This document shows positions 1-19,881 of a stretch of 20,000 nucleotides of DNA, in pieces (position 1 is the stretch's first letter; each line of letters opens with the position of its first letter). The notes under the pieces are model-generated. The model ran no database searches and was not told the origin of the DNA. It was given only the letters and a program-made list of their open reading frames with translations. A program made the position numbers and the translations under genes. The stretch covers positions 55,870 through 75,869 of the IMG/VR virus record IMGVR_UViG_3300025585_000041. One strand, given 5' to 3'. The DNA is from an uncultured virus (IMG/VR IMGVR_UViG_3300025585_000041) (Duplodnaviria; Heunggongvirae; Uroviricota; Caudoviricetes).

Positions 1-154
1 TAATAAAGAAGAGGCACTAAATATAGCATACTCCATTGGAATGGAAGAATGGGTGCATGAATGGCCTGAAGATAAAGAATTAGATCGATGGCAAAGCACA
101 CGAAAAAGTAAATGGGGTAAAAAAATGATAAAGGTAGTGGAAAAAAATGCATAA
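1..154 (+). CDS. 3' end of a hypothetical protein (partial, runs off window start)
   Basis: Frame 2 is open from base 2 (NKEEALNIAYSIGMEEWVHEWPEDKELDRW...VEKNA) to TAA at 152-154 and overlaps the whiB start, like the other coupled genes here. Confidence 0.7.
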   Translation, partial: NKEEALNIAYSIGMEEWVHEWPEDKELDRWQSTRKSKWGKKMIKVVEKNA

Positions 155-431
155 AATAAAATGGAAAGATAATGCCAGTTGCCTTGGATATGACACAAAT
201 ATATTTTTTGATAAATATGAAGAATCTGAGTCTTTTAGAGAAGCAATAGACAAATTATGTTTAAGTTGTCCAGTCTTAAAAACTTGTTTTTCTGTAGGTG
301 TTTCTCAAAAAGAATGGGGAGTTTGGGGTGGAGTTTATTTAGAAAATGGTGATATTTCTAAAGAATTTAATTCCCATAGATCAGAAAAAGATTGGAGCAA
401 TGTCTGGACTATCCTGACAAATGAAAAATAA
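147..431 (+). CDS. whiB: WhiB-family Fe-S transcription regulator
   Basis: Four Cys in WhiB spacing (ASC...LCLSCPVLKTC) plus the GVWGG turn motif. Confidence 0.92.
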   Translation: MHKIKWKDNASCLGYDTNIFFDKYEESESFREAIDKLCLSCPVLKTCFSVGVSQKEWGVWGGVYLENGDISKEFNSHRSEKDWSNVWTILTNEK

Positions 432-1361
432 ATGTTTGTATACGGAGATTGGAAGCAGCCAAATAAACTAGAGGGACTACATAGAATAAGTGTTCCAAAA
501 TTAGGTTATGTATGGCCAATTATGGGACAGTTAGAAGATAATGAGGAATTTTCTGAAAGACTAATTGAAAAACCTGATCTTCATTTAGTCTTATGGCAAA
601 AAAATTTTTTACATGCATTTTTTAATATGGTTCAGTACATTTTACACTATCATAGAATAAATAATGATGCTTATTTTGTCATAATGTTTGGATTAGATTA
701 TCGTGAAGAAGACAAAGAAATAAATCATGCTAAGTTTATCTTAAAACTTTTAGATGATAAAAAAATTAAATATGAATTAGTTTATTTAAAAGAAGAGTCA
801 ATTGTAGTTAAAGATGCAACATATATGTCAGTTATACCTTTTTCTTCTTTTGTTTTTAAAGAAGTGTATGACTATTGTAGTACTAAAATAAATAGAGTTA
901 AATCTCCTAATAAAGTTGCCTATTTAGCAAGATCAAAAGTTCCACCAAAAGCAGAAAATAGTATTTTTAATGGAAAAGATCAAAATTCTTTTAGAATAAA
1001 AAATGATTTAAGGATAGAAGATGAAGAGGTATTAATTGAATATTTTAAGCAAAAAGGTTTTGACATAGTTTATCCAGAAGATTTTGCAAGTTTTGAAGAA
1101 CAAATTATTTATTTTGACAGTGTAAAGGCAATGATATGTCCATCTGGTTCTGGCATGGCTAATATGATGTTTTTGCAGCCATCACAAATTGTGGTGGAAT
1201 TGCAAACCCCAGTATTAATAGGTGGAACACAACAAGTGCATCCATTTTATGAAGGTTTTGCTTGGGCAAAAAAACATAATCTTATTACTATTCCACATGA
1301 AAGAAAATCAGAGCATATAATAGAATATTTTGAAAAAAGAAAATTTTTGGAGTATTTATGA
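432..1361 (+). CDS. Glycosyltransferase family 61 (DUF563-like) protein
   Basis: C-terminal YLAR...LRIEDEEVL...GFDIVYPE..SFEEQI.YF...SGSGMANMMF pattern typical of GT61/DUF563. Confidence 0.75.
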   Translation: MFVYGDWKQPNKLEGLHRISVPKLGYVWPIMGQLEDNEEFSERLIEKPDLHLVLWQKNFLHAFFNMVQYILHYHRINNDAYFVIMFGLDYREEDKEINHAKFILKLLDDKKIKYELVYLKEESIVVKDATYMSVIPFSSFVFKEVYDYCSTKINRVKSPNKVAYLARSKVPPKAENSIFNGKDQNSFRIKNDLRIEDEEVLIEYFKQKGFDIVYPEDFASFEEQIIYFDSVKAMICPSGSGMANMMFLQPSQIVVELQTPVLIGGTQQVHPFYEGFAWAKKHNLITIPHERKSEHIIEYFEKRKFLEYL

Positions 1362-2320
1362 TAAGAATGGAACCAAGAAAGCCAATATATTATGATGGCT
1401 TATTTAAAATTGAAGATGGATTTAATGCTTCTATGCCAATTATTACTAAGATAACTCATGAAGAATTTAAGGGCTATACATTTAATCAACATAATAACGG
1501 AGATCACTTTTTAGATGATACTAATAGAAAAAGGATAGTCGTTAGATTTGAGTCAGCATTTTTTCATATATTTTTTCACGTACTTGGTCCAATTTTATAT
1601 GAATATAAACAAGATAAAAACATTGAGGTAATACTATTACATCCAAGCAAAGAAAAAGATATTTTTCATAATAGTGGATTATTTGTAATAAATGTATTAA
1701 GAAAATATGGTATTCCGTATAGCGTTGTGCAAACACATTCTATTTATCCCCCAATAGTTAGAAATTTTTATTATTACGAAGAGACAGAGTTATGTGGAGA
1801 ATTTATTCGCTGTCTTGATGAGATGGTTGAAGGATATCGAGATCTTTCTATATCTAATGACAAAAAAATATATGTTTCTAGACAAAAAAAACAAAACATG
1901 ATGGCAACACAATTACACCAAATGTCACAAGAAGAAATAGATAAATTAGAATTTAAAGATGATTTAAGAATTGATAATGAAGAATATTTAGAGAATTTAT
2001 TAAGAGCCAATGGATTTGAAATATGTACCCCAGAAATGTTTAATAGCATTGAAGATCAAATAAAATATTTTGATAAAGCAAAAATTATAGTTTCATTATC
2101 TGGATCAGGACTCACTAATTTGCTTTTTATGAGAAAAAATACAACCATTATAGAGTTAAGTACAACACAATTACTTAAACAGAATATAGAATTTCATTTT
2201 CATTTTTATCTAATATCTTCTTTATTTTCTGAAAAAATATATGTATCAGTACCAAATGTCACTAGAAAATATGATAAAATAGAAAAAGAACTTGAAAGGT
2301 TTATAAAAATATATGACTAA
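1358..2320 (+). CDS. Glycosyltransferase family 61 (DUF563-like) protein, paralog of upstream gene
   Basis: IYVSR...DLRIDNEEYL...GFEICTPE...IEDQIKYF...SGSGLTNLLF; ATGA overlap with the previous gene. Confidence 0.75.
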   Translation: MIRMEPRKPIYYDGLFKIEDGFNASMPIITKITHEEFKGYTFNQHNNGDHFLDDTNRKRIVVRFESAFFHIFFHVLGPILYEYKQDKNIEVILLHPSKEKDIFHNSGLFVINVLRKYGIPYSVVQTHSIYPPIVRNFYYYEETELCGEFIRCLDEMVEGYRDLSISNDKKIYVSRQKKQNMMATQLHQMSQEEIDKLEFKDDLRIDNEEYLENLLRANGFEICTPEMFNSIEDQIKYFDKAKIIVSLSGSGLTNLLFMRKNTTIIELSTTQLLKQNIEFHFHFYLISSLFSEKIYVSVPNVTRKYDKIEKELERFIKIYD

Positions 2321-3041
2321 TATACTTATTCCAATTGCTGGACTTGGTAGTAGGTTTCCAGTAGACATATATAAAACAACTAAGCCATTAATAAAAATAA
2401 ATGGAATTTCTATGATACAGCATGCCATAAATTCTTTATCTATAAAAGGAAAGTATAATTTTGTAGTTAGAGATAACATATTTTTTGATGAATTATATTC
2501 AACATTAAAAAACATTGAGCCAACATGTAATATTATTAAGATTGATAAATTAACAAATGGACCAGCAGAAACATGCTTGATGGCAAAAGATTTTATCAAT
2601 AATGATGAAGAACTCATAATTGCTAACTCTGATCAAATAATGTGGTGGGATTCTGATTTATTTTTACAGGTAGCACGTAATTCAAAATATGATGGAATGA
2701 TTGTAACTTATACCGCAAATACAGATAAAAATAGTTATGCTAAAATAAATAAAAATGGATTAGTTTTAGAAATAAAAGAAAAAGAAATTATAAGTGATAT
2801 ATCATTAAATGGAATACATTATTGGAAACATGGAAAAGATTTTGTTGATAGTGCAAGCAAAATGATATTAAATAACGAAAGATATAATGGAGAATTTTAT
2901 GTAGGACCTACTTATAATTCAATGATTAAAGATGGTAAAAAAATTGGAATTTATCACATACCTTCTTTTCAACATAATGCTGTTGGAGTACCTTCTGATT
3001 TAGAACTATATATGGAGAAACTATGGAAATTAGAAGAATAG
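2313..3041 (+). CDS. Sugar-phosphate nucleotidyltransferase (NTP_transferase / GT2 BcbE-like)
   Basis: N-terminal ILIPIAGLGSRF...KPLIKING signature, T.GPAET, IANSDQ, GIHYW, NGEFYVGPTYN, GVPSDL. Confidence 0.85.
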   Translation: MTNILIPIAGLGSRFPVDIYKTTKPLIKINGISMIQHAINSLSIKGKYNFVVRDNIFFDELYSTLKNIEPTCNIIKIDKLTNGPAETCLMAKDFINNDEELIIANSDQIMWWDSDLFLQVARNSKYDGMIVTYTANTDKNSYAKINKNGLVLEIKEKEIISDISLNGIHYWKHGKDFVDSASKMILNNERYNGEFYVGPTYNSMIKDGKKIGIYHIPSFQHNAVGVPSDLELYMEKLWKLEE

Positions 3042-3346
3042 AAGACTTTACCAGAGGATGGATTATAGGAAACTTTGATCCGTCTTTATTAAAAACAGAT
3101 AAATTTGAGGTTGGTTTGTTAACTCATAAGGCTGGAGAAATGTGGCCAAAACATTACCATGAGGTTGCAACAGAATATAATGTTCTTGTATCTGGTAGAA
3201 TGATAATACAAGGAAAAGAATTAAAATCTGGAGACGTTTTTGTTTTTAATCCAGGAGATATAGCAGATCCAATATTTTTAGAAGATTGTTCAGTTTTAGT
3301 AGTAAAAGTTCCATCTATTATAGGAGATAAGTATGAAGTTTTATAG
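3023..3346 (+). CDS. RmlC-like cupin domain protein
   Basis: GWIIGNF..., metal-binding KHYH...TEYN, G-D-V-F-V-F-N-P-G beta-barrel pattern; 107 aa. Confidence 0.75.
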   Translation: MEIRRIEDFTRGWIIGNFDPSLLKTDKFEVGLLTHKAGEMWPKHYHEVATEYNVLVSGRMIIQGKELKSGDVFVFNPGDIADPIFLEDCSVLVVKVPSIIGDKYEVL

Positions 3347-4538
3347 AGACTTAGACGACTCTGAAAAACAAAGATGTATAGTTGTAACATATTATATAGA
3401 AGTCAATCCTTCACATGGTAGATTAAATGATGCTGCATGGGCGCTTGCTATTGGACAAAGTGTTGGTAATCCAAAACAAAGAAATAGTTGGGAAACTGAT
3501 GATATATTTGAAATGTCATCATGTGTTATTTATGATGATGAAGAAAAATTAAAATTAGCACTAAATGGTTTTGTTAAAATTGGTTTTCCAAAAATAAATT
3601 CAGATTGGGATAACGATGGTATTTCGCATTTCTTATGTCAGATTATGGGTGGACAATTAGACATTGATGTATTTAAAGTATGTAGAGTGGTAGATGTTGA
3701 ATTTCCAGAAAGTGTAAAAAAGAGTTTTCTTGGCCCTAAGTTTGGTATGTCTGGAATAAGAGAGTTAACTGGACAAAAAAATAAGCCATTGTTAGGCGGT
3801 ATTGTAAAACCTAAAACTGGAATATCAGTTAAACAACTAGGATATATAGTTAAAGAGTTAATTGATGGTGGCGTTGATTTTATTAAAGAAGATGAAATAT
3901 TATCTAACCCAACATTTTGTAGGCTAGAAGAAAGAGTTGAGCACATTGCTAACATTATCGCAGATTCTGGAAGAAAGGTAGTTTTTGCTCATTGTATTAA
4001 TGCTGATCCACATGCTATTTTAAATAGAGTAAAAACAGTATATGAAAATGGTGGTAATGGTGTACATGTAAACTTCTGGAGCGGATTTGGAGCATATAAC
4101 TCTATACGAAAAATGGATCTTCCAATATATATGCATTTTCAAAAAAGCGGGGATAAGATATTAACAAATCCTAGTCATAATTTTAGAATTGATTGGTATG
4201 TTATTTGTAAGTTAGCAGCATTAATGGGAGTAGATACGATACATACTGGTATGTGGGGTGGGTATTTAAGTGATGACGAAGATAATTTAAAAAGATCTAT
4301 AGATTTATTAAATGATAATAATGTTGTGCCAGCGCTAAGTTGCGGAATGCATCCTGGCCTTGTAGAGGCTATAAGCAGAAGGTTTGGTATAAACTATATG
4401 GCAAACGTAGGAGGAGCCATCCACGGGCATTCTGGTGGCACTTTAGGGGGCACTATGGCCATGAGGCAGGCTATAGATAAGTCCTATGGTCCAGAATATA
4501 TTTCTGCTATAGAAAAGTGGGGAATTGTTAATGATTAA
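3333..4538 (+). CDS. RuBisCO-like protein (form IV RLP), RuBisCO large-subunit fold
   Basis: GPKFG..GIR, GGIVKPKTG (K175/K177 equivalents), GGVDFIKEDE (carbamylated Lys/metal motif), IHTG, SCGMHPG, GGAIHGH. The HRA motif and the loop-6 Lys of true RuBisCO are missing. Confidence 0.92.
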   Translation: MKFYRDLDDSEKQRCIVVTYYIEVNPSHGRLNDAAWALAIGQSVGNPKQRNSWETDDIFEMSSCVIYDDEEKLKLALNGFVKIGFPKINSDWDNDGISHFLCQIMGGQLDIDVFKVCRVVDVEFPESVKKSFLGPKFGMSGIRELTGQKNKPLLGGIVKPKTGISVKQLGYIVKELIDGGVDFIKEDEILSNPTFCRLEERVEHIANIIADSGRKVVFAHCINADPHAILNRVKTVYENGGNGVHVNFWSGFGAYNSIRKMDLPIYMHFQKSGDKILTNPSHNFRIDWYVICKLAALMGVDTIHTGMWGGYLSDDEDNLKRSIDLLNDNNVVPALSCGMHPGLVEAISRRFGINYMANVGGAIHGHSGGTLGGTMAMRQAIDKSYGPEYISAIEKWGIVND

Positions 4539-4971
4539 AATATCACATAGGGGTAATCTATATGGTAAAAATGAATCAAGAGAAAACTCCCCAGATTATA
4601 TTGCTGAGGCTATAAATGCTGGATACAATGTTGAAATAGATTTTTGGTTTGTAAATAATAAAATGTATTTAGGACATGATAAACCAACATATGAGATCGA
4701 CATATATTTTTTAAATTCTTATATTAAAAAGTTATGGATTCATTGTAAAAATTTAGAAGCCTTAGATTTAGTTTTATCAATGCCAAAATATTATAATGCG
4801 TTTTGGCACCAAGAAGATGATTTTACAATAACTACTAATCATTATATATGGACATACCCTGGTATGCCAGTTACACCAAAAAGTATTTTGGTTCATCAAG
4901 AAATGCCAACCGCAGATGTTTTAAATATGCAGATGGCTGGAATCTGTAGTGATCATATTGGAAGAGTATAA
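4531..4971 (+). CDS. PLC-like/glycerophosphodiester phosphodiesterase-family protein
   Basis: ISHRGN...ENS...A...GYNVEIDFW...LGHD...LWIHCKN. ATG at 4531, overlapping the RLP stop, is preferred to the TTG at 4525. Confidence 0.75.
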   Translation: MIKISHRGNLYGKNESRENSPDYIAEAINAGYNVEIDFWFVNNKMYLGHDKPTYEIDIYFLNSYIKKLWIHCKNLEALDLVLSMPKYYNAFWHQEDDFTITTNHYIWTYPGMPVTPKSILVHQEMPTADVLNMQMAGICSDHIGRV

Positions 4972-4973
4972 AA

Positions 4974-5180
4974 ATGAACAATAAAGAATATTTAGAATTT
5001 TTAAGACAAAAAAATAAAAAAATTATGTCTAAATGTTATTACTGTGATGGTTTTGCAATAACAATAATTGCAGATGGTTACTCAATACATCCTGTATGTA
5101 AAAATCATGATAATAGATCATTTGATATAATTGAAGATGATATAAATAAAATTTTTGAAAGTCAGAGGGATTTTGAATGA
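4974..5180 (+). CDS. Small protein with putative zinc finger
   Basis: CYYC...CKNH; coupled to neighbours (ATGA overlap at 5177-5180). Confidence 0.6.
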   Translation: MNNKEYLEFLRQKNKKIMSKCYYCDGFAITIIADGYSIHPVCKNHDNRSFDIIEDDINKIFESQRDFE

Positions 5181-5938
5181 TTATACAAATTATAGGATTA
5201 CCAGGTTCTGGTAAGACAGAGTTAGCAAAAGCATTAAAAGAACGAATTAATGCTATTCATCTTAATGCGGATGAGGTTCGTGCTACCGTAAATTCTGACC
5301 TTGGCTTTAGCCATGAAGATAGGATTGAGCAGGCAAGACGAATGGGTGAGATGGCTCGTCTTATTGCAAAACAAGGGGTTGCACCAGTAGTAGTTGATTT
5401 TGTTTGTCCTACAGAATTAACTCGTGCAGCATTTGGTAAGCCAGATATTTTAGTTTATATGGAAACAATTGAGGCTGGTAGATTTGAAGATACTAATAAA
5501 ATGTTTGAAGTGCCATCTAACTTTGATATGGCATTTATTAGTCATGAATGGGATGCCAATGAAAAAGCATCGGTAATCATTAATCAATTTAATTTACACG
5601 ATTGGTCAGCACCTACAACATTAATGCTTGGTAGATATCAGCCTTGGCATGAAGGCCATCATGCTTTGTATGAAGAGGCTGGGAAAAGAACAAAACAAGT
5701 GCTTCTTGGGGTACGCAATACATATAACACAAGTCCAAAAGATCCGCTTAAATTTGATCAAGTTAAAGAATATATTTCAAAAGATGAGTTTATGGATGGG
5801 GCAATGGTGCTACGTTTGCCAAATATTACTAACATAGTTTATGGTCGTGATGTAGGATATAAAATTGAACAGATTGAACTTGCTCCAGAAATACAGGCTA
5901 TTTCTGCGACACAAAAACGTAAGGAAATGGGAATATGA
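5177..5938 (+). CDS. Adenylylsulfate (APS) kinase-like P-loop domain fused to HxGH nucleotidyltransferase domain
   Basis: N-terminus GLPGSGKT, LNADEVR, DLGFSHEDRIEQARR (CysC-like); C-terminus LGRYQPWHEGH (cytidyltransferase-like HIGH motif). Confidence 0.82.
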   Translation: MIIQIIGLPGSGKTELAKALKERINAIHLNADEVRATVNSDLGFSHEDRIEQARRMGEMARLIAKQGVAPVVVDFVCPTELTRAAFGKPDILVYMETIEAGRFEDTNKMFEVPSNFDMAFISHEWDANEKASVIINQFNLHDWSAPTTLMLGRYQPWHEGHHALYEEAGKRTKQVLLGVRNTYNTSPKDPLKFDQVKEYISKDEFMDGAMVLRLPNITNIVYGRDVGYKIEQIELAPEIQAISATQKRKEMGI

Positions 5939-6237
5939 ATAAAATTAAATATATTTGGGAAATAGTAAAAGACCGTTGGATTAGACCATATGATGAAATT
6001 ACTGTAAGGTTTAATACAAAGGCACAACCAGAAGATCCTTTGGTATGGAGAATTTTTATTAATGGAGTTGAAAATTTAGCAAGTGGATTTGAAATTCATG
6101 GATATGTTTATGATATTGTGAATCAGCATAACGGTGAGACAAAATGGAATGTTGGATGTAAGGGAAGAGTTCGTTGGGAAGGTTCTAAGGCTATTATTAT
6201 TACAGCGCCAAAACAATCAGAAGACCTTTTGTCATAA
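5935..6237 (+). CDS. Hypothetical protein
   Basis: 100-aa ORF in the coupled run (ATGA overlap upstream, abutting downstream). Confidence 0.65.
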   Translation: MNKIKYIWEIVKDRWIRPYDEITVRFNTKAQPEDPLVWRIFINGVENLASGFEIHGYVYDIVNQHNGETKWNVGCKGRVRWEGSKAIIITAPKQSEDLLS

Positions 6238-6474
6238 ATGTATACAGATGGAATGCGTAGGGCTTTTAGGTCATTAAACCATTTTTGTCCTAAAGGTTTT
6301 AGTTTAGAACTTATAGATAATGATAATTTTATTACTGTTAAAGCATCAGAAAAATCTTTTATGTCGTTACTTGACGAAGACAAGCGTCGTGCTGTAGAAT
6401 ATATGGTAAGAGTAAAAAAAGCATTAGAAGATAATGGTGCCATTGTCTTATTAGTAAGAGAAGGCGGAAAATGA
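6238..6474 (+). CDS. Hypothetical protein
   Basis: 78-aa ORF abutting the previous stop, with an ATGA overlap to the next ORF. Confidence 0.7.
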   Translation: MYTDGMRRAFRSLNHFCPKGFSLELIDNDNFITVKASEKSFMSLLDEDKRRAVEYMVRVKKALEDNGAIVLLVREGGK

Positions 6475-6605
6475 AAAATAAATTTATTTTTGGCATTATT
6501 GGAATAATAACCTTATCAACAATATTAACATTTTGGGTTAGGCAGTTGACAAAAATTGAAGACTTTGATATATTTGGAGATATAGAAGACGAGGAAGATC
6601 TATAA
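6471..6605 (+). CDS. Small membrane-anchored protein (44 aa; not in ORF track)
   Basis: MKNKFIFGIIGIITLSTILTFWVRQLTKIEDFDIFGDIEDEEDL: one hydrophobic helix and an acidic tail. Fills the gap exactly (ATGA and TAATG overlaps). Confidence 0.7.
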   Translation: MKNKFIFGIIGIITLSTILTFWVRQLTKIEDFDIFGDIEDEEDL

Positions 6606-7102
6606 TGCAAACATTTCTACCATCATCAGATTTTAATATCTGTGCAAAAATGCTTGATTCTAAAAGATTAAATAAGCAAATATTAGAAGGCTACCAAATA
6701 CTAAATGTGCTCTCTGGAAACTCACCTACTGGTGGTTGGCGCAATCATCCTGCCGTACTTATGTGGAAAGGCAGCGAATGGATGCTTAATGAATACGTTT
6801 ATGCAATGATTAAAGAAGCAAAGTCTAGAAATATAAAAGTTGATAAAAATCAAGAAAATATGAAATTATTAAAAACAAGATTTTCTAAAATTTGGGGTAA
6901 AAATAAACCTAAATGGTTTATAGATAAAAATAAATTAATGCTTGTTATTACCACACACAAAGCAAATTTATTTAAAAAAGATCCTCTTTATTATGCAAAA
7001 TTTCAACACGCTATTTATAGCATAAATAACTCACCTTGCTGTCCAAATCGTAAAGAACCTTGTAAGTATTATTGGCCAACACACGAGGATAAATATGCTT
7101 GA
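6605..7102 (+). CDS. Pyrimidine-dimer DNA glycosylase/endonuclease V family (MSMEG_6728-like)
   Basis: MQTFLP...LDSKRLNKQILEGYQIL...GGWRNHPAVLMWKG...H..NL..KDP..Y...YYWP. Confidence 0.85.
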   Translation: MQTFLPSSDFNICAKMLDSKRLNKQILEGYQILNVLSGNSPTGGWRNHPAVLMWKGSEWMLNEYVYAMIKEAKSRNIKVDKNQENMKLLKTRFSKIWGKNKPKWFIDKNKLMLVITTHKANLFKKDPLYYAKFQHAIYSINNSPCCPNRKEPCKYYWPTHEDKYA

Positions 7103-7457
7103 TTTATTAGTTTTTATTTTAGTTGTTATAGTTATTGTTGGCGCAGTTATAGAAAACATAAGATTAAAAAATAAAAATATAGAGTTAATGTTTTTGTTAA
7201 CACAATCTGCCATAGATATAAACAGTATTAAAGAAAAAATAGAAAATAATTCAGAAAATATTGAACAAGAACATCTAATAGCATTTTTAACTGAAACAAG
7301 AGATATGGCGTATAAGTATATTGAAGATTTACAAAAAGAATTAATTACATTTGCTAAAATTTTAGATCAAGAGTCATCGTCTCCAAATGATTTATCTGTT
7401 CTTAGAATTAAAAAGGCTTTTGATAACTTAGAAAGTATGAAGCCAGATGCAAATTAA
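7095..7457 (+). CDS. Hypothetical membrane-anchored coiled-coil protein
   Basis: N-terminal hydrophobic helix (LLVFILVVIVIVGAV) followed by helical charged sequence. Confidence 0.65.
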   Translation: MLDLLVFILVVIVIVGAVIENIRLKNKNIELMFLLTQSAIDINSIKEKIENNSENIEQEHLIAFLTETRDMAYKYIEDLQKELITFAKILDQESSSPNDLSVLRIKKAFDNLESMKPDAN

Positions 7458-8991
7458 TAAAATAGTAATAGTTGGCGGGGGTTCTGCTGGATGGATGACT
7501 GCATCTGCACTAATAAAAGCATACCCAGAAAAAAATATTTCTTTAATTGAAAGCACAGATATTCCAATTATTGGTGTAGGAGAAAGTACTACATTTGAAA
7601 TAAATGGATTTTTTAATTTTTTAGATTTAGACTATTCAAGCATTATGAAATATACAAATGCTGCCTATAAAGTGGCAATAGGTTTTACTAACTTTAAAAC
7701 TAAAGATTCGCCAACATTTTATTATCCGTTTGGACACCCCAATTTAGACCCAGAAATAACACATTATGGACTTGATGATTGGCATTATAAAAAAGCATTT
7801 TATCCAAAAACAGAAGATCAAGATTATGTAAGATATTTTTTCCCGCAGGCTAAAAGCATGGAAACAAACAAACTTGTAATTGATCATATAGACTCAATGA
7901 ATCCATATCAGCCTCATAGGGATTTAGCATTGCAGATGGATGCTACTAAACTTGGTAACTGGCTTGCAGAATATTATGCTATCCCCAGGGGTGTAAATAG
8001 AATATTTGGTACAGTTACTGATATTGATGGAAATGAAAATGGTATAACATCTATACTTTTAGACAATGGCACTAAAGTTTATGCTGACTTATTTATAGAT
8101 TGTTCTGGATTTAAAAGTATCCTTTTGGGTAATTTTATGAAAGAAAAATTTATTTCTACTGCTGAATACCTTCCAAATAATAGAGCATGGACTGCACATA
8201 TTCCATATACTGATAAAGAGAAAGAATTACAAACTTTTACAAATTGTACTGCTATAAATAATGGGTGGATTTGGAATATTCCTTTATGGAATAGAATAGG
8301 CTCTGGGTACGTATACTGTAATGAATTTATTTCAGATGATGATGCATTAGAAGAATATAAAAATTATTTAGATTCAGACAAAATGGTAGTTCATGATCCA
8401 AATAGATCTAAAAATTTAACTTTTAAAAATATAAAAATTACTAATGGGTATTATGACAGATTTTGGGTTAAAAATGTAGTTGCTATTGGATTATCTGCAG
8501 GATTTTTAGAACCATTAGAAAGTACTGGATTGTTACTAACTCATCAAAATTGTTTTACTTTGGTTGATGCTCTTGAAAGAGAGCATGTAACACAATACGA
8601 TATAGATAATTTTAACTATAAGACAAAAACTAGAATTGAAAGAATGTTTGATTTTGTTGGAATGCATTATGCATTATCTCAAAGAGAAGATACGCCATAT
8701 TGGAAGCATATAACTTCAAAAAAATATCCAGAAAACTATTTTAAATCATCAGTTGAGTGGGCAAATAAAAATGTTGATACAATTAAAACTGGATTTGGCA
8801 TAAGGCCTTTCCACAAAACATATATTAGTTTATTAGAAAAAATGTCGCACTTTAATAACTCTGATATAAAAACTAAAATGGATGAATATTTTAGTAAGAG
8901 ATTAGAGGCAAAGAAAAATTGGGATAGTATTGTAGATAATTCTAAGTCGCATTTTGAAATACTAAAAGAAAAATTTTATGAAACAGAATAA
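7447..8991 (+). CDS. Flavin-dependent tryptophan halogenase (PrnA/RebH family)
   Basis: IVGGGSAGW (FAD binding), GVGEST, catalytic-Lys region AAYKVAI, FIDCSGF, GWIWNIPL (WxWxIP), GFLEPLESTG. Confidence 0.9.
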   Translation: MQINKIVIVGGGSAGWMTASALIKAYPEKNISLIESTDIPIIGVGESTTFEINGFFNFLDLDYSSIMKYTNAAYKVAIGFTNFKTKDSPTFYYPFGHPNLDPEITHYGLDDWHYKKAFYPKTEDQDYVRYFFPQAKSMETNKLVIDHIDSMNPYQPHRDLALQMDATKLGNWLAEYYAIPRGVNRIFGTVTDIDGNENGITSILLDNGTKVYADLFIDCSGFKSILLGNFMKEKFISTAEYLPNNRAWTAHIPYTDKEKELQTFTNCTAINNGWIWNIPLWNRIGSGYVYCNEFISDDDALEEYKNYLDSDKMVVHDPNRSKNLTFKNIKITNGYYDRFWVKNVVAIGLSAGFLEPLESTGLLLTHQNCFTLVDALEREHVTQYDIDNFNYKTKTRIERMFDFVGMHYALSQREDTPYWKHITSKKYPENYFKSSVEWANKNVDTIKTGFGIRPFHKTYISLLEKMSHFNNSDIKTKMDEYFSKRLEAKKNWDSIVDNSKSHFEILKEKFYETE

Positions 8992-9604: not shown

Positions 9605-9648
9605 AAAAGGGATGGGCTATTCTTTGTAGTAGCCCATCTTTACTTTTT
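9605..9648. terminator. Probable bidirectional intrinsic terminator between convergent genes
   Basis: Inverted repeat GATGGGCTA (9611-9619)/TAGCCCATC (9630-9638), with an A-run before and a T-rich run after; overlaps the stop of the minus-strand gene. Confidence 0.7.
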
Positions 9649-10501
9649 CATATAATTCATAATCTAAATTTTGTTTTTCTGTTATTAATTTTTTAAAACT
9701 ATCTGGAATTGTTTTTTTAAATTCATTATTTTTTTCACTTCCAGTATTTTGATATCCTTTAATTTTTGTTGACAAAGAAATATTAATATTTTTTTCTAAA
9801 AAATTATTTAAATTTGATAAATCATTTTGATTGTCTATAGTTTCAATATAATCTATATTTGAAAGAGCACTATCAATGTTGCTATACACCCGAACTAAAT
9901 CATTATATGATAACGAAAATTCTTTATATTGATCAAAAGTAATTTCTTTTGATGCTAATTTATCATAAAATCTTTTTAAATCAGACATATTGAGAGTACA
10001 TGTTAAATATTTATATTGCATATTATCATTTCTATTATCAAACATATGCTCTTCTAACTTCTCTAAACTAGGATTTTCATTTTTATATAAATAATTACTT
10101 ATATATCTGTCTGTTGGATTTCTAAGTATTGTATATGTAAATAATTTCTTTTCATGTTTTTTAAATAATTCTATTGGATATAACGCAAAATGACCTGATA
10201 TAAAATCACATTTTAACATTTCTTTATCATCTAAATATTGTAAAAAGTTACTATAGATTCTATGATCTTTATAGGTATGTAGCAATACTTCTTTCACAGA
10301 CATACCAGAGGTTTTTGGAATATGTAAAAAATAAAATGACTTTTCTGGAACGTTATCTTCCCATTCAATTCTATAAACTAATTCTCCACCCTTTAAAAAA
10401 AATCCAGGTTGAACAATCCATGCTGGAAATATTCCTTTTTCACACTCTATTTCATCATGTACAGAATAAACTTTGTCGTTAATTATTTTTTTTAAAGTCA
10501 T
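9617..10501 (-). CDS. Sulfotransferase family (Sulfotransfer_2-like) protein
   Basis: FLHIPKTSG (5'-PSB loop), SGHF, LRNPTDRYISNYLY (3'-PB), C-terminal QNLDYELYE. Confidence 0.8.
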   Translation of the reverse strand: MTLKKIINDKVYSVHDEIECEKGIFPAWIVQPGFFLKGGELVYRIEWEDNVPEKSFYFLHIPKTSGMSVKEVLLHTYKDHRIYSNFLQYLDDKEMLKCDFISGHFALYPIELFKKHEKKLFTYTILRNPTDRYISNYLYKNENPSLEKLEEHMFDNRNDNMQYKYLTCTLNMSDLKRFYDKLASKEITFDQYKEFSLSYNDLVRVYSNIDSALSNIDYIETIDNQNDLSNLNNFLEKNINISLSTKIKGYQNTGSEKNNEFKKTIPDSFKKLITEKQNLDYELYEKVKMGYYKE

Positions 10502-11199
10502 TATGCATTATCTGAAAATTGATATTGAAGATCAGTAGTATATGGAAATTCTATAGAAGACATCCTAGTTTGTCTTTCTTTTTCTGAAATTTCTGCAAAA
10601 AACGAAACAAGTGTATACCTTATACCAGAAGTAATGCCATGTATTTTATGCATATAACTATACGCAGACGGGAATAAAAATAGTTGTCCAGCCTTTGGTT
10701 TAATTTTAACACCAAAATGAATAAATTCTAATTCTCCTCCGTCATAGTCATCATTTGGATAATAAACTAGGGATACTGTTCTTGGCGTTCCATACGAATC
10801 GTCTGCATGTAAAGAGAAAAACTCACCTGGCTCATATCTTGATATTCTCATGGCTTCTCTACTTAATGGGGCCAAGTCCCACTGCCATAAATAAGAGTCT
10901 ACAATTTCTTGAAAATGTTCTGCAAATCTTGGATCATTCCATACCCAACATGTTTCTGCTTTTTTACCATTTAATTCATTATAATAGTCTTCACGAATCC
11001 AAGGTTTGCTACCACGATGTGAATTGTTATTCCAATATTCCTCTGTTCTTATTTCATTTATAAAATCCATAGAGTTTGGCCAAACATTATCATAAATATG
11101 AAGACCAGGGATAGGTGATGTGAAAGAAAAACGTTCACCGCTTCTACTTTCTGTTATTTTATCTATTTGGTTTTGTAATTTATTTGGATCTCCGTACAT
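10501..11199 (-). CDS. 2OG-Fe(II) oxygenase (prolyl-4-hydroxylase-like)
   Basis: RYEPGEFFSLHAD...YPNDDYDGGEL.F...LFPS...H.IHGITSGIRY: HxD...H...R. Confidence 0.88.
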   Translation of the reverse strand: MYGDPNKLQNQIDKITESRSGERFSFTSPIPGLHIYDNVWPNSMDFINEIRTEEYWNNNSHRGSKPWIREDYYNELNGKKAETCWVWNDPRFAEHFQEIVDSYLWQWDLAPLSREAMRISRYEPGEFFSLHADDSYGTPRTVSLVYYPNDDYDGGELEFIHFGVKIKPKAGQLFLFPSAYSYMHKIHGITSGIRYTLVSFFAEISEKERQTRMSSIEFPYTTDLQYQFSDNA

Positions 11200-12483: not shown

Positions 12484-13059
12484 ATGTATAAAATTTTAGC
12501 ACCAGGAATAGTTATTTTTGAAAATGTATTTAGTAAAAACTATATAGACTTTATTGAAAAAAACTTATCAGATTTTTTTGAATTAAAAATAAACAATAGA
12601 AATGGATCTATTGTTAGAAAATCATATGCAATTCAATTAAGTGATTATCCAGACAATATAGATGCTAGATTAATATATGATGAATTTCAAAAAGCAATTA
12701 AAGAAACAACCGAAGTATATCAATCTTTATATAATATAAATGTTATGATCCCAGATTCTTCACAAAATAATTCTTCTAATATGGCTGTTGCAACATTATT
12801 AAAATATGAAGTAGATAACAATATTATATTTCATTCTGATACCTTGAATGGTGAAGACTTTAGAATAGGCGCTGCATTGGCGTATTTAAACGATAACTAT
12901 GATGGTGGAGAGTTAGAATTTGAGCACTTTAATATAAAAATAAAACCGCCAGCAAATAGTTTAATAATTTTTCCATCTAACTGGCCTTATAGTCATAGAT
13001 CTAATTCAATAATTAATGGTAAAAAATATGCACTTCGTTGTTTTTTAACTAGTAAATAA
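12484..13059 (+). CDS. 2OG-Fe(II) oxygenase
   Basis: LLKY...FHSD...YLNDNYDGGELEF...IFPSNWPYSH.S..I..G.KY. Confidence 0.85.
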   Translation: MYKILAPGIVIFENVFSKNYIDFIEKNLSDFFELKINNRNGSIVRKSYAIQLSDYPDNIDARLIYDEFQKAIKETTEVYQSLYNINVMIPDSSQNNSSNMAVATLLKYEVDNNIIFHSDTLNGEDFRIGAALAYLNDNYDGGELEFEHFNIKIKPPANSLIIFPSNWPYSHRSNSIINGKKYALRCFLTSK

Positions 13060-14773: not shown

Positions 14774-14812
14774 ATTTTAATTATACACCATCATATGGTA
14801 GAATTAATTATT
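14774..14812. promoter_or_regulatory. Divergent -10 promoter pair (leaderless or near-leaderless)
   Basis: - strand TATAAT-TAAAAT-ATG(14773); + strand TGGTAGAAT-8 nt-ATG(14813). Confidence 0.55.
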
Positions 14813-15400
14813 ATGATTATAGATGATTCATTTTTAAATCAAGAAGAAATAATTAGTTTACAAAAAATGATGTATGATATACCTAATTCTAACTTTCCAT
14901 GGTATTTTTATGGTTCAACTAATAAAAAAGATAGTTCTGGTGTCATCTTAAATAATGACGATTATTTAGATTCACAACAATTTGTTCACCTTGCCTATCA
15001 TAACTCACAAAAACATTCTCAGTTTTCAGACACATTTTTATATATTTTTAACAAGTTTATAAATAAACATAATATAGTTGTAGACAATGTGTTTAGAATT
15101 AAAGCAAATCTTATTTTAAAAGATGGTACAAATAATAAAATACATTATCCTCATATTGATACAGATCATGAACATTTTGTTTTTTTATATTATGTAAATG
15201 ATTCAGATGGTGATACAATTTTATTTAATGAAAAATACCCCATGGAAAATAAAAATTTAACAATTGACAAAAAAATTAATCCAAAGGCTGGAAGGGCAAT
15301 ATTATTTAATGGACTCCAATATCACTCATCTTCTAGTCCAATAAAGAATGATATAAGATGTGTTATTAATATAGACTTTACTGGCAAGGTTAGTTTGTGA
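14813..15400 (+). CDS. 2OG-Fe(II) oxygenase-like protein
   Basis: FRIKANL...PHIDTD...LYYVNDSDGDT..F...PKAGRAILFNG..YHSSS.P....R.VINIDF. Start moved to 14813 because the track's ATG at 14795 lies inside the promoter. Confidence 0.8.
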   Translation: MIIDDSFLNQEEIISLQKMMYDIPNSNFPWYFYGSTNKKDSSGVILNNDDYLDSQQFVHLAYHNSQKHSQFSDTFLYIFNKFINKHNIVVDNVFRIKANLILKDGTNNKIHYPHIDTDHEHFVFLYYVNDSDGDTILFNEKYPMENKNLTIDKKINPKAGRAILFNGLQYHSSSSPIKNDIRCVINIDFTGKVSL

Positions 15401-15464: not shown

Positions 15465-15884
15465 ATGGTAAGTTCATTTGCATTGGATCTATTTAAAGAT
15501 CCATTTTTTATTGGTTTCAACAGAGAGTTGGACCGTCTTTCAAATATCCATCGTGAGGCAACTCGTCAGTCCTATCCACCGTATGACGTGGTAAAACTTG
15601 ATGAGGATACTTATAAACTATCTTTAGCCATTGCTGGTTTTAGCAAGGATGAAGTTGAGGTTTCTGTGGATAATGGAAGTTTGATTGTCAAGGGTGAGAA
15701 AACAGAAGAAGAAAATTCTAATGTTCTTCACAAGGGTATTGCAAGCAGAAAGTTCACACGCACCTTTGCTCTTGGAGAGTATATGGAGGTTGATCGTGCT
15801 GAAATGGCAGACGGTATTCTTAGCGTCTTTGTGGAAAGAAACATTCCAGAAGAAAAGAAACCAAAAGCAATTAAAATCAAATAA
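15465..15884 (+). CDS. hsp20: Small heat-shock protein Hsp20 (IbpA-like)
   Basis: SYPPYDVVK...LAIAGF...L.VKGEK...LHKGIASRKFTRTFAL...A.MADGIL...PEEKKPKAIKI; AAGGAGG Shine-Dalgarno. Confidence 0.95.
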   Translation: MVSSFALDLFKDPFFIGFNRELDRLSNIHREATRQSYPPYDVVKLDEDTYKLSLAIAGFSKDEVEVSVDNGSLIVKGEKTEEENSNVLHKGIASRKFTRTFALGEYMEVDRAEMADGILSVFVERNIPEEKKPKAIKIK

Positions 15885-16730: not shown

Positions 16731-16880
16731 ATGTCTAAAAAATCATCTGGTTCATACAAAAGGCACGATGGATTTAATCCCATACAAATTAAGAATGGTA
16801 ATGTTGTACGCTTAAGAAAAGACGGTACAATTAAAGCAATTCTTGGTAAATATGGAGAATATAAAAAAGATACTAAATAG
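16731..16880 (+). CDS. Small basic protein (49 aa; not in ORF track)
   Basis: MSKKSSGSYKRHDGFNPIQIKNGNVVRLRKDGTIKAILGKYGEYKKDTK; starts 3 nt after the upstream stop and fills the gap to the convergent gene. Confidence 0.65.
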   Translation: MSKKSSGSYKRHDGFNPIQIKNGNVVRLRKDGTIKAILGKYGEYKKDTK

Positions 16881-17634
16881 ATAAATTATTATTTATTCCA
16901 TCTACCACAATGCATAAATTGCCAAATATTTTATTTTGATCTATATATTGTTTTATATTTTTTAAAGTACTACGAATTACTTTTTGATGATCTGTAGTTA
17001 AATCAATACAAAAAACTGCTTTTCTTTCTTCGCCAAAAAATGTAATACATTCATTAATAAAAATATCATGATCAAAACAATTATGAAGCATGTGTATTTT
17101 ATCTTCTTTATCAATTGGTCTATGATTTGAATTATGTAATAAAAAAATCATAGGAACAGGAGACATTTTTAAAAATTCAAACTTTTTATGTCTTTCTTCA
17201 TCTACGCTGTGCATAAAGCCTTCAAATAAAAAGTTATTTAATATATTGGATAATGATGCTGCAGCAAGAGCAACAGATGGCCCTGGAGTAGTTATAATTT
17301 GTATATCATTTTTAATTGCTTCATCAACAAGTATAGTACCAGGATCTGCAAGACCAGGCATACCTTCATCAGATATTATATAAACATCCTCGCCATTTTT
17401 TAAAATTGAAATTATTCTTTCTTTTACTTCGTTTTCTCTGTTATTGTTTAACGAAAAACATATATCAATTAGTTCTGCATTATATATAAAATTATTAAAA
17501 GAACAATATTCTTTAAATCTATCTATATCTTCAACGCATATATATTTAGCGTCATTAAATGCATTTAATAACCTTTGAGATGTATCCAACATGTTGCCAA
17601 TTGGAGATCCAATTAGATGTAATTTACCAAACAC
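16873..17634 (-). CDS. RsmI-like (tetrapyrrole methylase fold) SAM-dependent methyltransferase, copy 1
   Basis: GKLHLIGSPIGNMLDTSQR, ICVED, IISDEGMPGLADPG, TPGPS, FLFEGF. Confidence 0.82.
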   Translation of the reverse strand: MFGKLHLIGSPIGNMLDTSQRLLNAFNDAKYICVEDIDRFKEYCSFNNFIYNAELIDICFSLNNNRENEVKERIISILKNGEDVYIISDEGMPGLADPGTILVDEAIKNDIQIITTPGPSVALAAASLSNILNNFLFEGFMHSVDEERHKKFEFLKMSPVPMIFLLHNSNHRPIDKEDKIHMLHNCFDHDIFINECITFFGEERKAVFCIDLTTDHQKVIRSTLKNIKQYIDQNKIFGNLCIVVDGINNNLSI

Positions 17635-18461: not shown

Positions 18462-18496
18462 AATATTAAAATTATACCATAGTGTATAATGAATAT
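18462..18496. promoter_or_regulatory. Divergent -10 promoter pair
   Basis: - strand TGGTATAAT-9 nt-ATG(18461); + strand TATAAT(18485-18490)-GAATAT-ATG(18497). Confidence 0.6.
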
Positions 18497-19246
18497 ATGT
18501 CGTTTGGAAAATTATATTTAGTTGGATTGCCTATTGGCAATTGGGAAGATATGTCAGTAAGAGCATTTAAATATATTCAAAATGCAAAAAATATAGTGAT
18601 AGAAAGAGAAGAGGCATTTGAAAGAATTTGGCCCGCACTTGGAATGCAAAAACCAAATGTCAATACTATATCCATTGAGTATGATTCTGATGGCGGAGAA
18701 CCTGGAGAAGCATACGAACTTCATAACATGAATAAAATAATTGATTTATTAAAAAATGGAGAAGATGTATTCTTAATTTCAGATGAAGGTATGCCAGGGG
18801 TAGCAGACCCAGGAGCAAGGATAGTTAAAAAATGTATTGCTGAAGGAATACATGTGACATCAACACCAGGACCTTCTGTTGTTATGGCTGCAGTAGCAGT
18901 TACTGGAACTATGCATAATTTTATATTTGAATCTTTTTTGCCATTTGTAAAAAATGAAAGAATTCAATTCTTAAAAGAAAGAAAAGACTACAATTATCCA
19001 ATGGTTATAATGCTTAGAAATGTAAAAAGAGGACAAGAATTTCATAATGAAATACCAGAGTTTTTAGAAGAAGCATGTGAAATACTAGGGGAAAACAGAT
19101 GGGCATCTCTTTGTTATAACTTAACTATGGATACAGAAAAAGTTATTCATAATACATTGGATAATTTAAAAGAATATTTTAATACTAATACTAGAATTAT
19201 GAGTGATCAGATTTGTATAGTAATAGAAAGTAAAAACTATAACTAA
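18497..19246 (+). CDS. RsmI-like SAM-dependent methyltransferase, copy 2
   Basis: GKLYLVGLPIGNWEDMSVRA, LISDEGMPGVADPG, TPGPS, FIFESFLP. Start set at ATG 18497 (MSFGKL), matching copy 1 (MFGKL). Confidence 0.85.
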   Translation: MSFGKLYLVGLPIGNWEDMSVRAFKYIQNAKNIVIEREEAFERIWPALGMQKPNVNTISIEYDSDGGEPGEAYELHNMNKIIDLLKNGEDVFLISDEGMPGVADPGARIVKKCIAEGIHVTSTPGPSVVMAAVAVTGTMHNFIFESFLPFVKNERIQFLKERKDYNYPMVIMLRNVKRGQEFHNEIPEFLEEACEILGENRWASLCYNLTMDTEKVIHNTLDNLKEYFNTNTRIMSDQICIVIESKNYN

Positions 19247-19464: not shown

Positions 19465-19490
19465 ATTTTCTCCTTTTGTTTAGTATTACG

Positions 19491-19562
19491 AGCCTCCTGT
19501 AGGATTTGAACCTACGACAACTCGCTTACAAGGCGAGTACTCTACCCCTGAGTTAAGGAGGC
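19491..19562 (-). tRNA. tRNA-Thr(UGU)
   Basis: Acceptor GCCTCCT/AGGAGGC; anticodon arm CTCGC-CTTGTAA-GCGAG; T-loop GTTCAAATC; no encoded CCA. Confidence 0.93.
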
Positions 19563-19563
19563 G

Positions 19564-19636
19564 TATCTCCAACGGGATTCGAACCCGTGTTGCCACCGTG
19601 AAAGGGTGGAGTCCTAGGCCTCTAGACCATGGAGAC
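19564..19636 (-). tRNA. tRNA-Glu(UUC)
   Basis: Acceptor GTCTCCA/TGGAGAT; CCACC-CTTTCAC-GGTGG; GTTCGAATC; no encoded CCA. Confidence 0.93.
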
Positions 19637-19637
19637 T

Positions 19638-19714
19638 TGGCGATCCGTATCGGACTTGAACCGACGACCTCTACCGTGACAGGGTAGCGTTCTAACCAAC
19701 TGAACTAACGGACC
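19638..19714 (-). tRNA. tRNA-Asp(GUC)
   Basis: Acceptor GGTCCGT/ACGGATC; CTACC-CTGTCAC-GGTAG; GTTCAAGTC; ends in GCCA. Confidence 0.94.
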
Positions 19715-19715
19715 T

Positions 19716-19791
19716 TGGCTGGTCTGGCAGGTCTCGATCCTGCGACATCTCGATTAACAGTCGAGTGTTCTACCAACTGAACTACAGACCA
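19716..19791 (-). tRNA. tRNA-Asn(GUU)
   Basis: Acceptor TGGTCTG/CAGACCA; CTCGA-CTGTTAA-TCGAG; atypical T-loop ATCGAGA; ends in GCCA. Confidence 0.9.
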
Positions 19792-19805
19792 ATGTTTAAT
19801 TGTAG

Positions 19806-19877: not shown

Positions 19878-19881
19878 TTAG

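Follow-up and report, generated by a model that had tools for sequence, protein, structure and literature searches.

The RLP gene and its gene cassette

The DNA analysed here, hereafter the window, is a stretch of 20,000 nucleotides from an uncultured tailed phage (IMG/VR record IMGVR_UViG_3300025585_000041, positions 55,870 to 75,869), and the gene in question, at 3333..4538 on the plus strand, encodes a RuBisCO-like protein (RLP) of the 'Form IV-like' clade, 401 amino acids long (P0001). Its open reading frame (ORF) has no internal stops, and an AGGAG motif at 3322..3326 on the same strand, 6 nt before the ATG at 3333, resembles a ribosome-binding site and may act as one. The protein matches the Pfam families RuBisCO_large (2.9e-38) and RuBisCO_large_N (7.6e-5) and belongs to the RuBisCO large-subunit superfamily, with an N-terminal alpha/beta domain and a C-terminal TIM barrel. 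Its nearest solved structures by HMMER are archaeal form III enzymes (8dht, 1.4e-42; 2cwx, 1.7e-39), followed by RLPs of the MtnW type (2oek, 5e-34).

The RLP is the third of four plus-strand genes that overlap by 4–19 nt. A sugar-phosphate nucleotidyltransferase (NTPt) of 242 amino acids (2313..3041) overlaps by 19 nt the start of a small metal-type cupin of 107 amino acids (3023..3346), which in turn overlaps the start of the RLP by 14 nt. The RLP is followed by a miniature GDPD-like phosphodiesterase (mini-GDPD; 4531..4971), whose 148-residue ORF is open from a TTG at 4525; the conserved ATG at 4531, which overlaps the RLP stop codon (TAA, 4536–4538), is its likely start. Directly upstream, and overlapping into the NTPt gene, lie two glycosyltransferases of the GT61 family (432–1361 and 1358–2320, plus strand; Pfam Glyco_transf_61, 4e-15 and 1e-17), and a gene for a WhiB-like transcription factor (147–431, plus strand; 1e-11) stands at the head of what is putatively a single glycan operon. 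No terminator-like site was found on the plus strand between positions 1 and 6000, the single one detected being on the minus strand, and promoter-like sites occurred at chance level (38 found, 38.0 expected). The WhiB-like gene may hint at an actinobacterial host.

Retained and replaced active-site residues

Active-site positions were identified with HMMER pairwise alignments of P0001 to the solved form III enzymes 8dht, 2cwx, and 3kdo, and with a MAFFT L-INS-i alignment of 87 proteins, comprising 32 members of the P0001 family (down to about 36% identity), 7 form III-type, 5 MtnW, 5 OiaX-like, and 38 other RuBisCO or RLP sequences. The rows were drawn from an exhaustive HMMER search and labelled with NCBIfam models, with 4 of the 7 form III-type references scoring above the TIGR03326 cut-off. 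Columns are given in spinach RuBisCO numbers, which we take to correspond through motif equivalence, and can be considered valid because all 7 form III-type references show the expected residues in them (E60, T65, W66, N123, K175, K177, K201, D203, E204, H294, R295, H298, H327, K334, S379, G381, G403, and G404). In P0001, the same columns read G41, N46, P47, G107, K159, K161, K185, D187, E188, Q270, K271, D274, H304, Y311, S336, G338, G360, and G361.

In RuBisCO, K201 carries a carbamate that, together with Mg2+ bound by D203 and E204, takes the C3 proton from the substrate, and K175 and K177 assist. All five residues are retained in P0001, where a KPK motif (3807..3815, plus strand) contains the equivalents of K175 and K177, and a KEDE motif (3885..3896, plus strand) contains the carbamate lysine K185 and the metal ligands D187 and E188. 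A first-pass annotation of the window, based on alignment by eye, had proposed that this Mg/carbamate chemistry was intact and that the latter motif read KEDE instead of KDDE at 3885–3896. The motif and its coordinates are exact, and the retention of the set is borne out both in the alignment and across relatives. The second position of the motif (E186) is specific to the family, being E in 31 of 32 family rows and D in all 17 form III, MtnW, and OiaX-like rows. The other residues listed as kept, H327 (H304, in IHTGMWGGY at 4239..4265), S379 and G381 (S336 and G338, in SCG at 4338..4346), and G403 and G404 (G360 and G361, in GG at 4410..4415; all on the plus strand), are likewise recovered by the HMMER alignments to form III and by the 87-row alignment.

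Replacements affect the residues that in RuBisCO have roles in CO2 addition, hydration, and cleavage, namely H294, K334, E60, and N123. On the plus strand, E60 becomes G41 in an AIGQSVGNP loop (3447..3473) whose G41–P47 stretch is invariant in alignment A1, N123 becomes G107 in GGQLD (3648..3662), H294 and R295 become Q270 and K271 in HFQK (4134..4145), and K334 becomes Y311 in the short loop 6 of IHTGMWGGY. The histidine of HFQK (H268) aligns with the preceding histidine of the form III motif. The four altered regions had been read correctly by eye, and H294, R295, and K334 are indeed not conserved in P0001. The alignment adds three changes to that earlier list (T65 to N46, W66 to P47, and H298 to D274), and reveals that loop 6 is shorter in P0001 than in form III enzymes and that the C-terminal extension of the latter is absent.

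The first-pass annotation had also suggested that one phosphate site was intact and the second remodelled. In RuBisCO, the distal phosphate is held by R295, H327, and S379, and the proximal phosphate by T65, K334, and the backbone of G381, G403, and G404. Remodelling of the distal site does not apply to P0001, where R295 is conservatively replaced by lysine and H327 and S379 are kept; it holds only for one subclade of the family, described below. The proximal site, on the other hand, is altered by the change of T65 to asparagine and by the loss of K334.

Conservation and phylogeny of the clade

Conservation was assessed in 264 relatives, made up of 120 listed database homologues, 79 copies from viral loci, 45 copies from cellular loci, and a deep set of 20 full-length representatives of 50% clusters. 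Each of G41, G107, Q270, and Y311 is found in 120 of 120 listed database homologues, 78–79 of 79 viral copies, 45 of 45 cellular copies, and 19–20 of 20 representatives. The retained K159, K161, K185, D187, E188, S336, G338, and G360 are invariant, or one sequence off, in the four sets, and the G404 position deviates in 4 of the 264 relatives. The residue pattern is thus far beyond chance. Real variation is confined to three positions: 295 (K in 245 relatives, R in 8, and S in 11, with R in 6 of the 20 deep representatives), 327 (H in 226, Q in 38), and 298, which is variable. In 10 of the 79 viral sequences these positions read S, A, and Q at 295, 298, and 327, respectively, and the ten form a single subclade.

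The closest relatives of the window RLP (84–86% protein identity) yield ratios of nonsynonymous to synonymous substitution (dN/dS) of 0.064–0.092 over six pairs (Nei-Gojobori), with dS near saturation. Substitutions that are near-invariant in 264 relatives and dN/dS values of 0.06–0.09 contradict the reading of a decaying gene, which the first-pass annotation had named as one that would refute its own. A pseudogene is rejected on the intact frame, the dN/dS range, and the near-invariance of the active site across viruses, bacteria, and archaea. In the alignment, 41 residues are conserved in at least 31 of the 32 family rows, of which 23 are common to form III and 18 are not. The latter include the active-site substitutions together with E186, D110, H245, N247, S272, G273, M307, and C337. 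Beyond the active-site changes, fifteen near-invariant residues are specific to the family, among them E186, D110, H245, N247, and C337. In a maximum-likelihood tree, the 32 family rows make up one side of a branch with SH-aLRT support of 99, apart from form III, MtnW, and OiaX-like sequences.

The family is widespread. RLP-bearing viral loci number 235, and the search with P0001 returned 2711 database proteins at E <= 0.001, other RuBisCO forms included. Routine annotation among the database homologues is 'ribulose-bisphosphate carboxylase large chain'. A tblastn search of P0001 against 50,697 phage records returned no match, and PHROGs holds no family for the RLP. The genome scan recovered a Beckwithbacteria homologue (L096) with 50% identity and the same cassette.

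Relationship to known RuBisCO and RLP groups

The window RLP carries the equivalents of K201, D203, E204, K175, and K177 that are expected of a ribulose bisphosphate (RuBP) carboxylase of forms I–III. Membership in these forms is nonetheless rejected by the replacement of K334, H294, E60, and N123 with Y311, Q270, G41, and G107, all 7 form III-type references having K, H, E, and N at these positions, and by NCBIfam scores far below the respective cut-offs (TIGR03326, 198.4 vs. 497; NF003252, 183.2 vs. 438; NF010002, 107 vs. 489). Compared with the solved form III enzymes (2cwx from Pyrococcus horikoshii, 3a12 and 3kdo from Thermococcus kodakarensis, and 8dht), P0001 lacks E60, T65, W66, N123, H294, H298, and K334. 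It therefore qualifies as a Form IV RLP in the broad sense of a RuBisCO homologue without several carboxylation residues.

Assignment to characterised RLP groups fails as well. The 2,3-diketo-5-methylthiopentyl-1-phosphate enolase MtnW/YkrW is rejected on model scores (TIGR03332, 129.3 vs. 513.6; NF007095, 153 vs. 409) and on residues at N123, K177, H294, R295, H327, and K334. MtnW proteins (2oek, 2oem, and 2zvi) have K at N123, V or I at K177, a conserved H294, P at 295, L at 327, and S or N at 334, whereas P0001 has G, K, Q, K, H, and Y, and the gene context also differs. The 3-oxo-isoapionate-4-phosphate decarboxylase RLP, OiaX, is excluded by its model score (NF042437, 147 vs. 700) and by its separate clade in the tree. 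The Rhodospirillum RLP, a 5-methylthioribulose-1-phosphate 1,3-isomerase, works beside a small cupin methylsulfurylase and transfers protons without C–C chemistry. By analogy, its isomerisation is a plausible model for the type of reaction catalysed by the window RLP, although the constant partner here is a nucleotidyltransferase and the setting is one of glycan synthesis.

The description that fits the window RLP is that of the 'Form IV-like' sequences of Jaffe et al. (2019; PMC6389311), who reported about 80 non-redundant phage RLP-related sequences and two from Beckwithbacteria, forming a divergent outgroup to other RLPs with key residues unlike those of known form IV proteins and a function that they call unclear. 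Both groups are phage-borne and highly divergent, retain some key residues while diverging at others, and have Beckwithbacteria kin, and we assign the window RLP to that clade on this match of descriptions, as opposed to a direct sequence comparison. Jaffe et al. (2019) report Myoviridae, whereas the window phage is siphovirus-like, with a tape measure protein of 2662 amino acids, and the text consulted gives neither a function nor a gene-context link for the clade. The window gene is hence a new member of a clade already described. Of the earlier claim of a different and possibly new substrate, a substrate other than that of a RuBP carboxylase remains the natural reading and agrees with the gene context, but the residue pattern as such is not new (Jaffe et al., 2019). 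New groups of RuBisCO homologues had already been noted in the GOS protein paper (PMC1821046), and a review (PMC10173188) lists an 'IV-GOS' subgroup, which may correspond to the window family.

Linkage of the cassette in viruses and cells

Linkage in viruses was counted from the clustered ORFs of 80 viral loci and the window (81 sources), in which the RLP was called in 80, the NTPt in 76, the cupin in 67, and the mini-GDPD in 64, usually in the order NTPt–cupin–RLP–mini-GDPD. The variable neighbours are glycosyltransferases (GT2, GT11, GT25, and WavE), sugar epimerase/dehydratases, and methyltransferases. Prokaryotes, scanned at one genome per species, yielded 47 cellular loci, 45 of them with a callable RLP ORF, in Pelagibacterales (SAR11), Patescibacteria of the Candidate Phyla Radiation (CPR; including Beckwithbacteria and Saccharibacteria), DPANN, Verrucomicrobia, Planctomycetes, Elusimicrobia, Legionellaceae, and others. 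An NTPt lies within five genes of the RLP in 41 of the 45, a mini-GDPD in 28, and a cupin in 12, and two of the four loci lacking an NTPt are contigs shorter than 4.1 kb. In both the viral and the cellular counts, the partner type that is always present is hence the NTPt, not the cupin. The sampled cellular neighbours are also glycan genes. GT61 genes, seen in just 6 of the 81 viral sources and in 2 of the 47 loci from cells, are a lineage-specific addition.

The NTPt matches Pfam NTP_transferase (4.2e-5; 23.7 bits against a cut-off of 21.2), and its family keeps the GxGxR loop, with G10, G12, and R14 invariant, as befits a sugar-1-phosphate nucleotidyltransferase. Searched against PDB, the NTPt profile matches 4evw, the uncharacterised structure of an NDP-sugar (nucleoside diphosphate-sugar) pyrophosphorylase (4.5e-29), followed by mannose-1-phosphate, glucose-1-phosphate, GlcNAc-1-phosphate, and heptose-1-phosphate nucleotidyltransferases. 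The cupin shows a weak Cupin_2 match and a match to phrog_24762 (3e-33), and keeps the HxH...E metal motif, H35, E39, H44, H46, and E51 being invariant. Its profile returned generic metal-cupin matches only, such as quercetin dioxygenase (1e-4, with no single stretch passing alone) and mannose-6-phosphate isomerase (0.028), and it matched no named NCBIfam family. The mini-GDPD belongs to the GDPD family, its barrel bearing the HRG, EN, ExD, and HD motifs of that family.

Gene fusions reinforce the linkage. The search for longer relatives found two RLP–NTPt–cupin fusions among 3081 candidates (P0122 and P0123, of 813 and 817 amino acids), in which the NTPt domain begins about 5 residues after the RLP domain. 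The exhaustive search added an RLP–NTPt fusion of 667 amino acids (P0125). Furthermore, a record of 288 amino acids (P0166) carries a mini-GDPD in front of the N-terminal part of an RLP, and ends inside the latter, probably because its contig stops there. Each of the three partners is therefore fused to the RLP somewhere, which is strong evidence that the linkage is functional and that the four proteins would act in one pathway.

Several loci depart from this core. A LicD-family gene adjoins the RLP–NTPt pair in four Legionellaceae loci (L126, where it scores 1e-42, L127, L129, and L130), whereas the remaining 124 loci examined lack it there. LicD enzymes transfer phospho-alcohols from CDP-activated donors, and such a neighbour would be in keeping with a product linked through a phosphodiester. 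A DUF7796-like protein of about 250 amino acids, often in two or three copies (e.g., L023:1991-2740), is the most frequent additional neighbour, found at 49 of the 81 viral and 12 of the 47 cellular loci. Profile searches gave no relative of it in PDB and the Atlas no informative neighbour, and it may be a transferase that uses the cassette product. In a viral sublineage (L034, L037, and L040–L045), the RLP is followed by genes for a fructosamine-kinase-like protein, a dehydroquinate-synthase-like sugar-phosphate cyclase, an SDR, a radical-SAM protein, and a protein of unknown kind, a set that suggests a cyclitol-type side pathway. A Woesearchaeota locus (L101) encodes a GHMP-kinase–NTPt fusion of 600 amino acids (5031–6833, minus strand) and a full-length GDPD beside the RLP and a second NTPt, and in DPANN and one SAR11 type two NTPt paralogues flank the RLP.

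Cyanophage modules with other enzymes in the RLP slot

Related modules occur in cultured cyanophages. S-SM2, Bellamy, SynMITS9220M01, and DSL-LC03 encode NTPt homologues (28–46% identity) in glycan clusters, together with mini-GDPD homologues (32–47%) and, in two phages, a cupin homologue (45%). These modules lack the RLP by the tblastn search mentioned above, and feature RpiB, a class II aldolase-like protein, HAD, or a GHMP kinase in its place. In SynMITS9220M01 and Bellamy, an NTPt (34%) fused to RpiB is followed by a cupin homologue, a DUF7796-like protein, a mini-GDPD, and a GHMP kinase, and the genes after a double NTPt in S-SM2 and Bellamy encode GT61, a protein of the class II aldolase/epimerase family, a mini-HAD, a mini-GDPD, and a DUF7796-like protein. 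DSL-LC03 carries a 46%-identical NTPt fused to a HAD domain. The window shares the GT61 family with the S-SM2 and Bellamy modules, and the DUF7796-like neighbours of RLP loci also recur in cyanophages. The chemistry of these replacement enzymes, too, proceeds by way of ketose or aldose phosphate enediolates. That cyanophages place enzymes for rearranging or dephosphorylating sugar phosphates in the slot of the RLP argues for a role of the RLP as an isomerase-type enzyme of sugar phosphates.

A proposed role in the synthesis of a glycan donor

The family keeps the metal/carbamate set, the glycines, and most of the distal phosphate site, and has exchanged the CO2-handling set for small or non-basic residues. 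As the first-pass annotation had surmised, the CO2-handling residues E60, N123, H294, and K334 are replaced, and the replacements are conserved under purifying selection, which argues for a non-carboxylase with a different substrate. The pocket appears to be widened, and the most economical reading of the sequence is that of an enolase or isomerase acting on a phosphorylated ketose. We therefore favour, with a probability of roughly 0.6, a non-carboxylating Mg/carbamate-dependent enolising isomerase of a ketose phosphate, which would feed the synthesis of a nucleotide-activated glycan donor. In such a scheme, carbamylated Lys185, with Mg2+ on Asp187 and Glu188 and with Lys159 and Lys161, would enolise a phosphorylated keto-sugar, most likely a pentulose or other ketose mono- or bisphosphate, and the enediolate would be re-protonated to yield an isomer or epimer, instead of being attacked by CO2. 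The product would pass to the adjacent NTPt, helped by the small metal cupin and the mini-GDPD, and the nucleotide-activated unit could then be used by glycosyltransferases of the same operon, such as the two GT61 proteins, to decorate a surface glycan during infection. The genes surrounding the cassette (glycosyltransferases, sugar epimerases, and methyltransferases) are consistent with this setting. The sequences establish the fold, the pattern of kept and lost residues, purifying selection, the linkage, and the fusions, whereas the enolisation and isomerisation, the sequence of steps, the kind of substrate, and the glycan target are inferred from them.

Several observations weigh against the isomerase reading. 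Among the RLP groups in the alignment, only this family lacks H294 while keeping K177, so its proton relay must differ from those of known RLPs; the family-specific H245 as a replacement for H294 is speculation. The nearest solved relatives of the NTPt act on aldose-1-phosphates. Known RLP reactions give ketose phosphates esterified on a primary carbon, which leaves a gap between the RLP product and the NTPt substrate. The alternation between subclades of K, R, and S at 295 and of H and Q at 327 disfavours one fixed bisphosphate substrate, and the cupin, which 14 of the 81 viral sources and 33 of the 45 cellular loci lack, is not essential to the core chemistry. Transcription is only weakly hinted at by contigs from RNA libraries, in which carry-over of DNA is possible. 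In one metatranscriptome run, exact contigs are confined to parts of the NTPt gene, and another has contigs 92–97% similar over 2653–4230 and 4824–4892, spanning the cupin and most of the RLP (3237–4230); stretches that no contig spans carry no information. In the latter, 13 of the 17 listed RLP differences are on third codon positions, in line with the selection seen in dN/dS. Lastly, the literature surveyed contains no biochemical data for any member of the clade, whose function Jaffe et al. (2019) describe as unclear, and full-text searches returned no link of the clade to nucleotidyltransferases, cupins, or glycan synthesis, although other papers may exist.

The same evidence can be read in other ways. 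Cupin-type NDP-sugar ketoisomerases and epimerases act on sugars attached to NDP, and the presence of a cupin in the cassette invites the idea that the RLP acts after the NTPt, isomerising or epimerising an NDP-linked keto-sugar, with the cavity left by E60G, N123G, K334Y, and W66P holding the nucleotide. The invariant change of four bulky active-site residues to Gly, Pro, or Tyr, the short loop 6, the missing C-terminal extension, and the linker of about 5 residues in RLP–NTPt fusions would all suit this order of events, but the proximal phosphate-site glycines are unchanged, and a conserved oxidoreductase that could introduce the keto group is missing from the core cassette, an epimerase/dehydratase family being present in only 20 of 81 viral sources. 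No RuBisCO-superfamily enzyme is known to bind a nucleotide-sugar, and we deem this order unlikely. Alternatively, the RLP could perform C–C chemistry, through decarboxylation, transcarboxylation, oxygenation, or beta-elimination of phosphate, and give a shortened, branched, or deoxy-diketo sugar phosphate. The RLPs of the apiose pathway and the 3-keto-ribitol-bisphosphate oxygenase offer models for such a reaction, and beta-elimination from the enediolate is a known side reaction of RuBisCO. The superfamily does hold enzymes of this kind, as attested by the NCBIfam OiaX model and by the mention of an oxygenase in a review (PMC10173188), and a metal cupin could process the diketone. Yet OiaX-like rows keep H294, R295, and K334, all of them lost in the P0001 family, P0001 reaches 147 of the 700 bits that the OiaX model demands, and nothing in the cassette points to a carboxylated substrate, which makes C–C chemistry quite doubtful.

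Another alternative is that the RLP and cupin serve salvage or catabolism, as a pair of the methylthioribose or 5-deoxyribose type that merely adjoins glycan genes, after the models of the MtnW enolase followed by a cupin dioxygenase, and of the Rhodospirillum RLP isomerase followed by a cupin methylsulfurylase. This is improbable, given that NCBIfam MtnW models reach 129–153 bits against cut-offs of 409–514, that MtnW has K, P, and L where P0001 has G, K, and H (N123, 295, and 327), that the invariant partner is the NTPt instead of the cupin, with fusions joining the RLP to NTPt and GDPD, that the cupin matches no named NCBIfam family, and that the cassette contains no other salvage genes. 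A full-length RuBisCO fold with a retained metal site could, in turn, be taken for a true RuBP carboxylase/oxygenase, or else for a decaying or non-catalytic remnant. The loss of E60, N123, H294, and K334 and a TIGR03326 score of 198 bits against 497 speak against the enzyme, and the intact frame, dN/dS of 0.06–0.09, and near-invariant active site in 264 sequences against the remnant, so that we give this explanation hardly any credence.

Within the ketose-phosphate isomerase reading, a broader and more tentative proposal, to which we would grant somewhat less than even odds, is that the RLP clade represents the entry enzyme of an undescribed route, leading by Mg/carbamate-driven enolisation from a central ketose phosphate or bisphosphate, such as a pentulose phosphate, to a rare sugar phosphate and, through a dedicated NTPt that is often fused to the RLP, to a surface glycan, with phages carrying the route between SAR11, CPR, DPANN, and freshwater hosts. 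The product could possibly be installed as a phosphodiester-linked unit, in view of the mini-GDPD in the cassette and of LicD in the Legionellaceae loci. To our knowledge, every function so far assigned to an RLP is catabolic or salvage, as NCBIfam names also suggest. If true, the proposal would provide the first anabolic, glycan-building role for the RuBisCO fold, a new reaction for the superfamily, and an unknown activated surface sugar of phages, SAR11, CPR, and DPANN, and it would correct the carboxylase annotation that these genes now carry. RLPs are a textbook case of one active site re-used for new chemistry, and this clade is large and present in abundant aquatic lineages and their phages. 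Furthermore, the obligatory partnership with the NTPt makes the proposal concrete enough to be put to a direct test using four proteins that are small and soluble.

The phage genome and other genes of the window

The window makes up the final 20 kb of an IMG/VR record of 75.9 kb, whose completeness is rated at 67%, and an identical copy occurs in a 121.9-kb record (L002). The rest of the record encodes the tape measure protein, a minor tail protein, a DnaB-like helicase, a primase, a DNA polymerase, a UvsX-like recombinase, a Cas4-like nuclease, a weak terminase match, and an endolysin, identifying it as a tailed phage. The length of the tape measure gene (G000:C1:5237-13225) implies a very long tail. 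Near-identical DNA is found in many freshwater metagenome runs, and in a megablast search of the whole window against the 50,697 phage records the sole match, to a cultured phage, was a 56-nt tRNA segment in the Asp tRNA region of the window.

Downstream of the cassette, a plus-strand gene (5177–5938) encodes a protein of 253 amino acids that combines an APS-kinase-like P-loop half (residues 2–85) with a cytidylyl/adenylyl-transferase-like half bearing an HxGH-type motif, and that matches phrog_10255, annotated as 'kinase'. A Sulfotransfer_2 gene lies 3.7 kb further downstream on the opposite strand (9617–10501, minus strand), and the two products could form a sulfate-activation and sulfotransfer pair for a sulfated glycan. 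The phage also carries two genes of the tryptophan-halogenase family (7447–8991, plus strand, and G000:C1:24823-26331; Pfam, 3.4e-103; phrog_2928, 5.8e-90). Three 2OG-Fe(II) oxygenase genes, an Hsp20 gene, and two TP_methylase-family genes are spread over 10501–11199 (minus strand), 12484–13059, 14795–15400, and 15465–15884 (plus strand), 16873–17634 (minus strand), and 18482–19246 (plus strand), in what looks like an island of auxiliary genes. Near the end of the window, a tight array of six tRNA genes (Thr-TGT, Glu-TTC, Asp-GTC, Asn-GTT, Arg-TCT, and Leu-TAA) occupies positions 19490–19954 on the minus strand.

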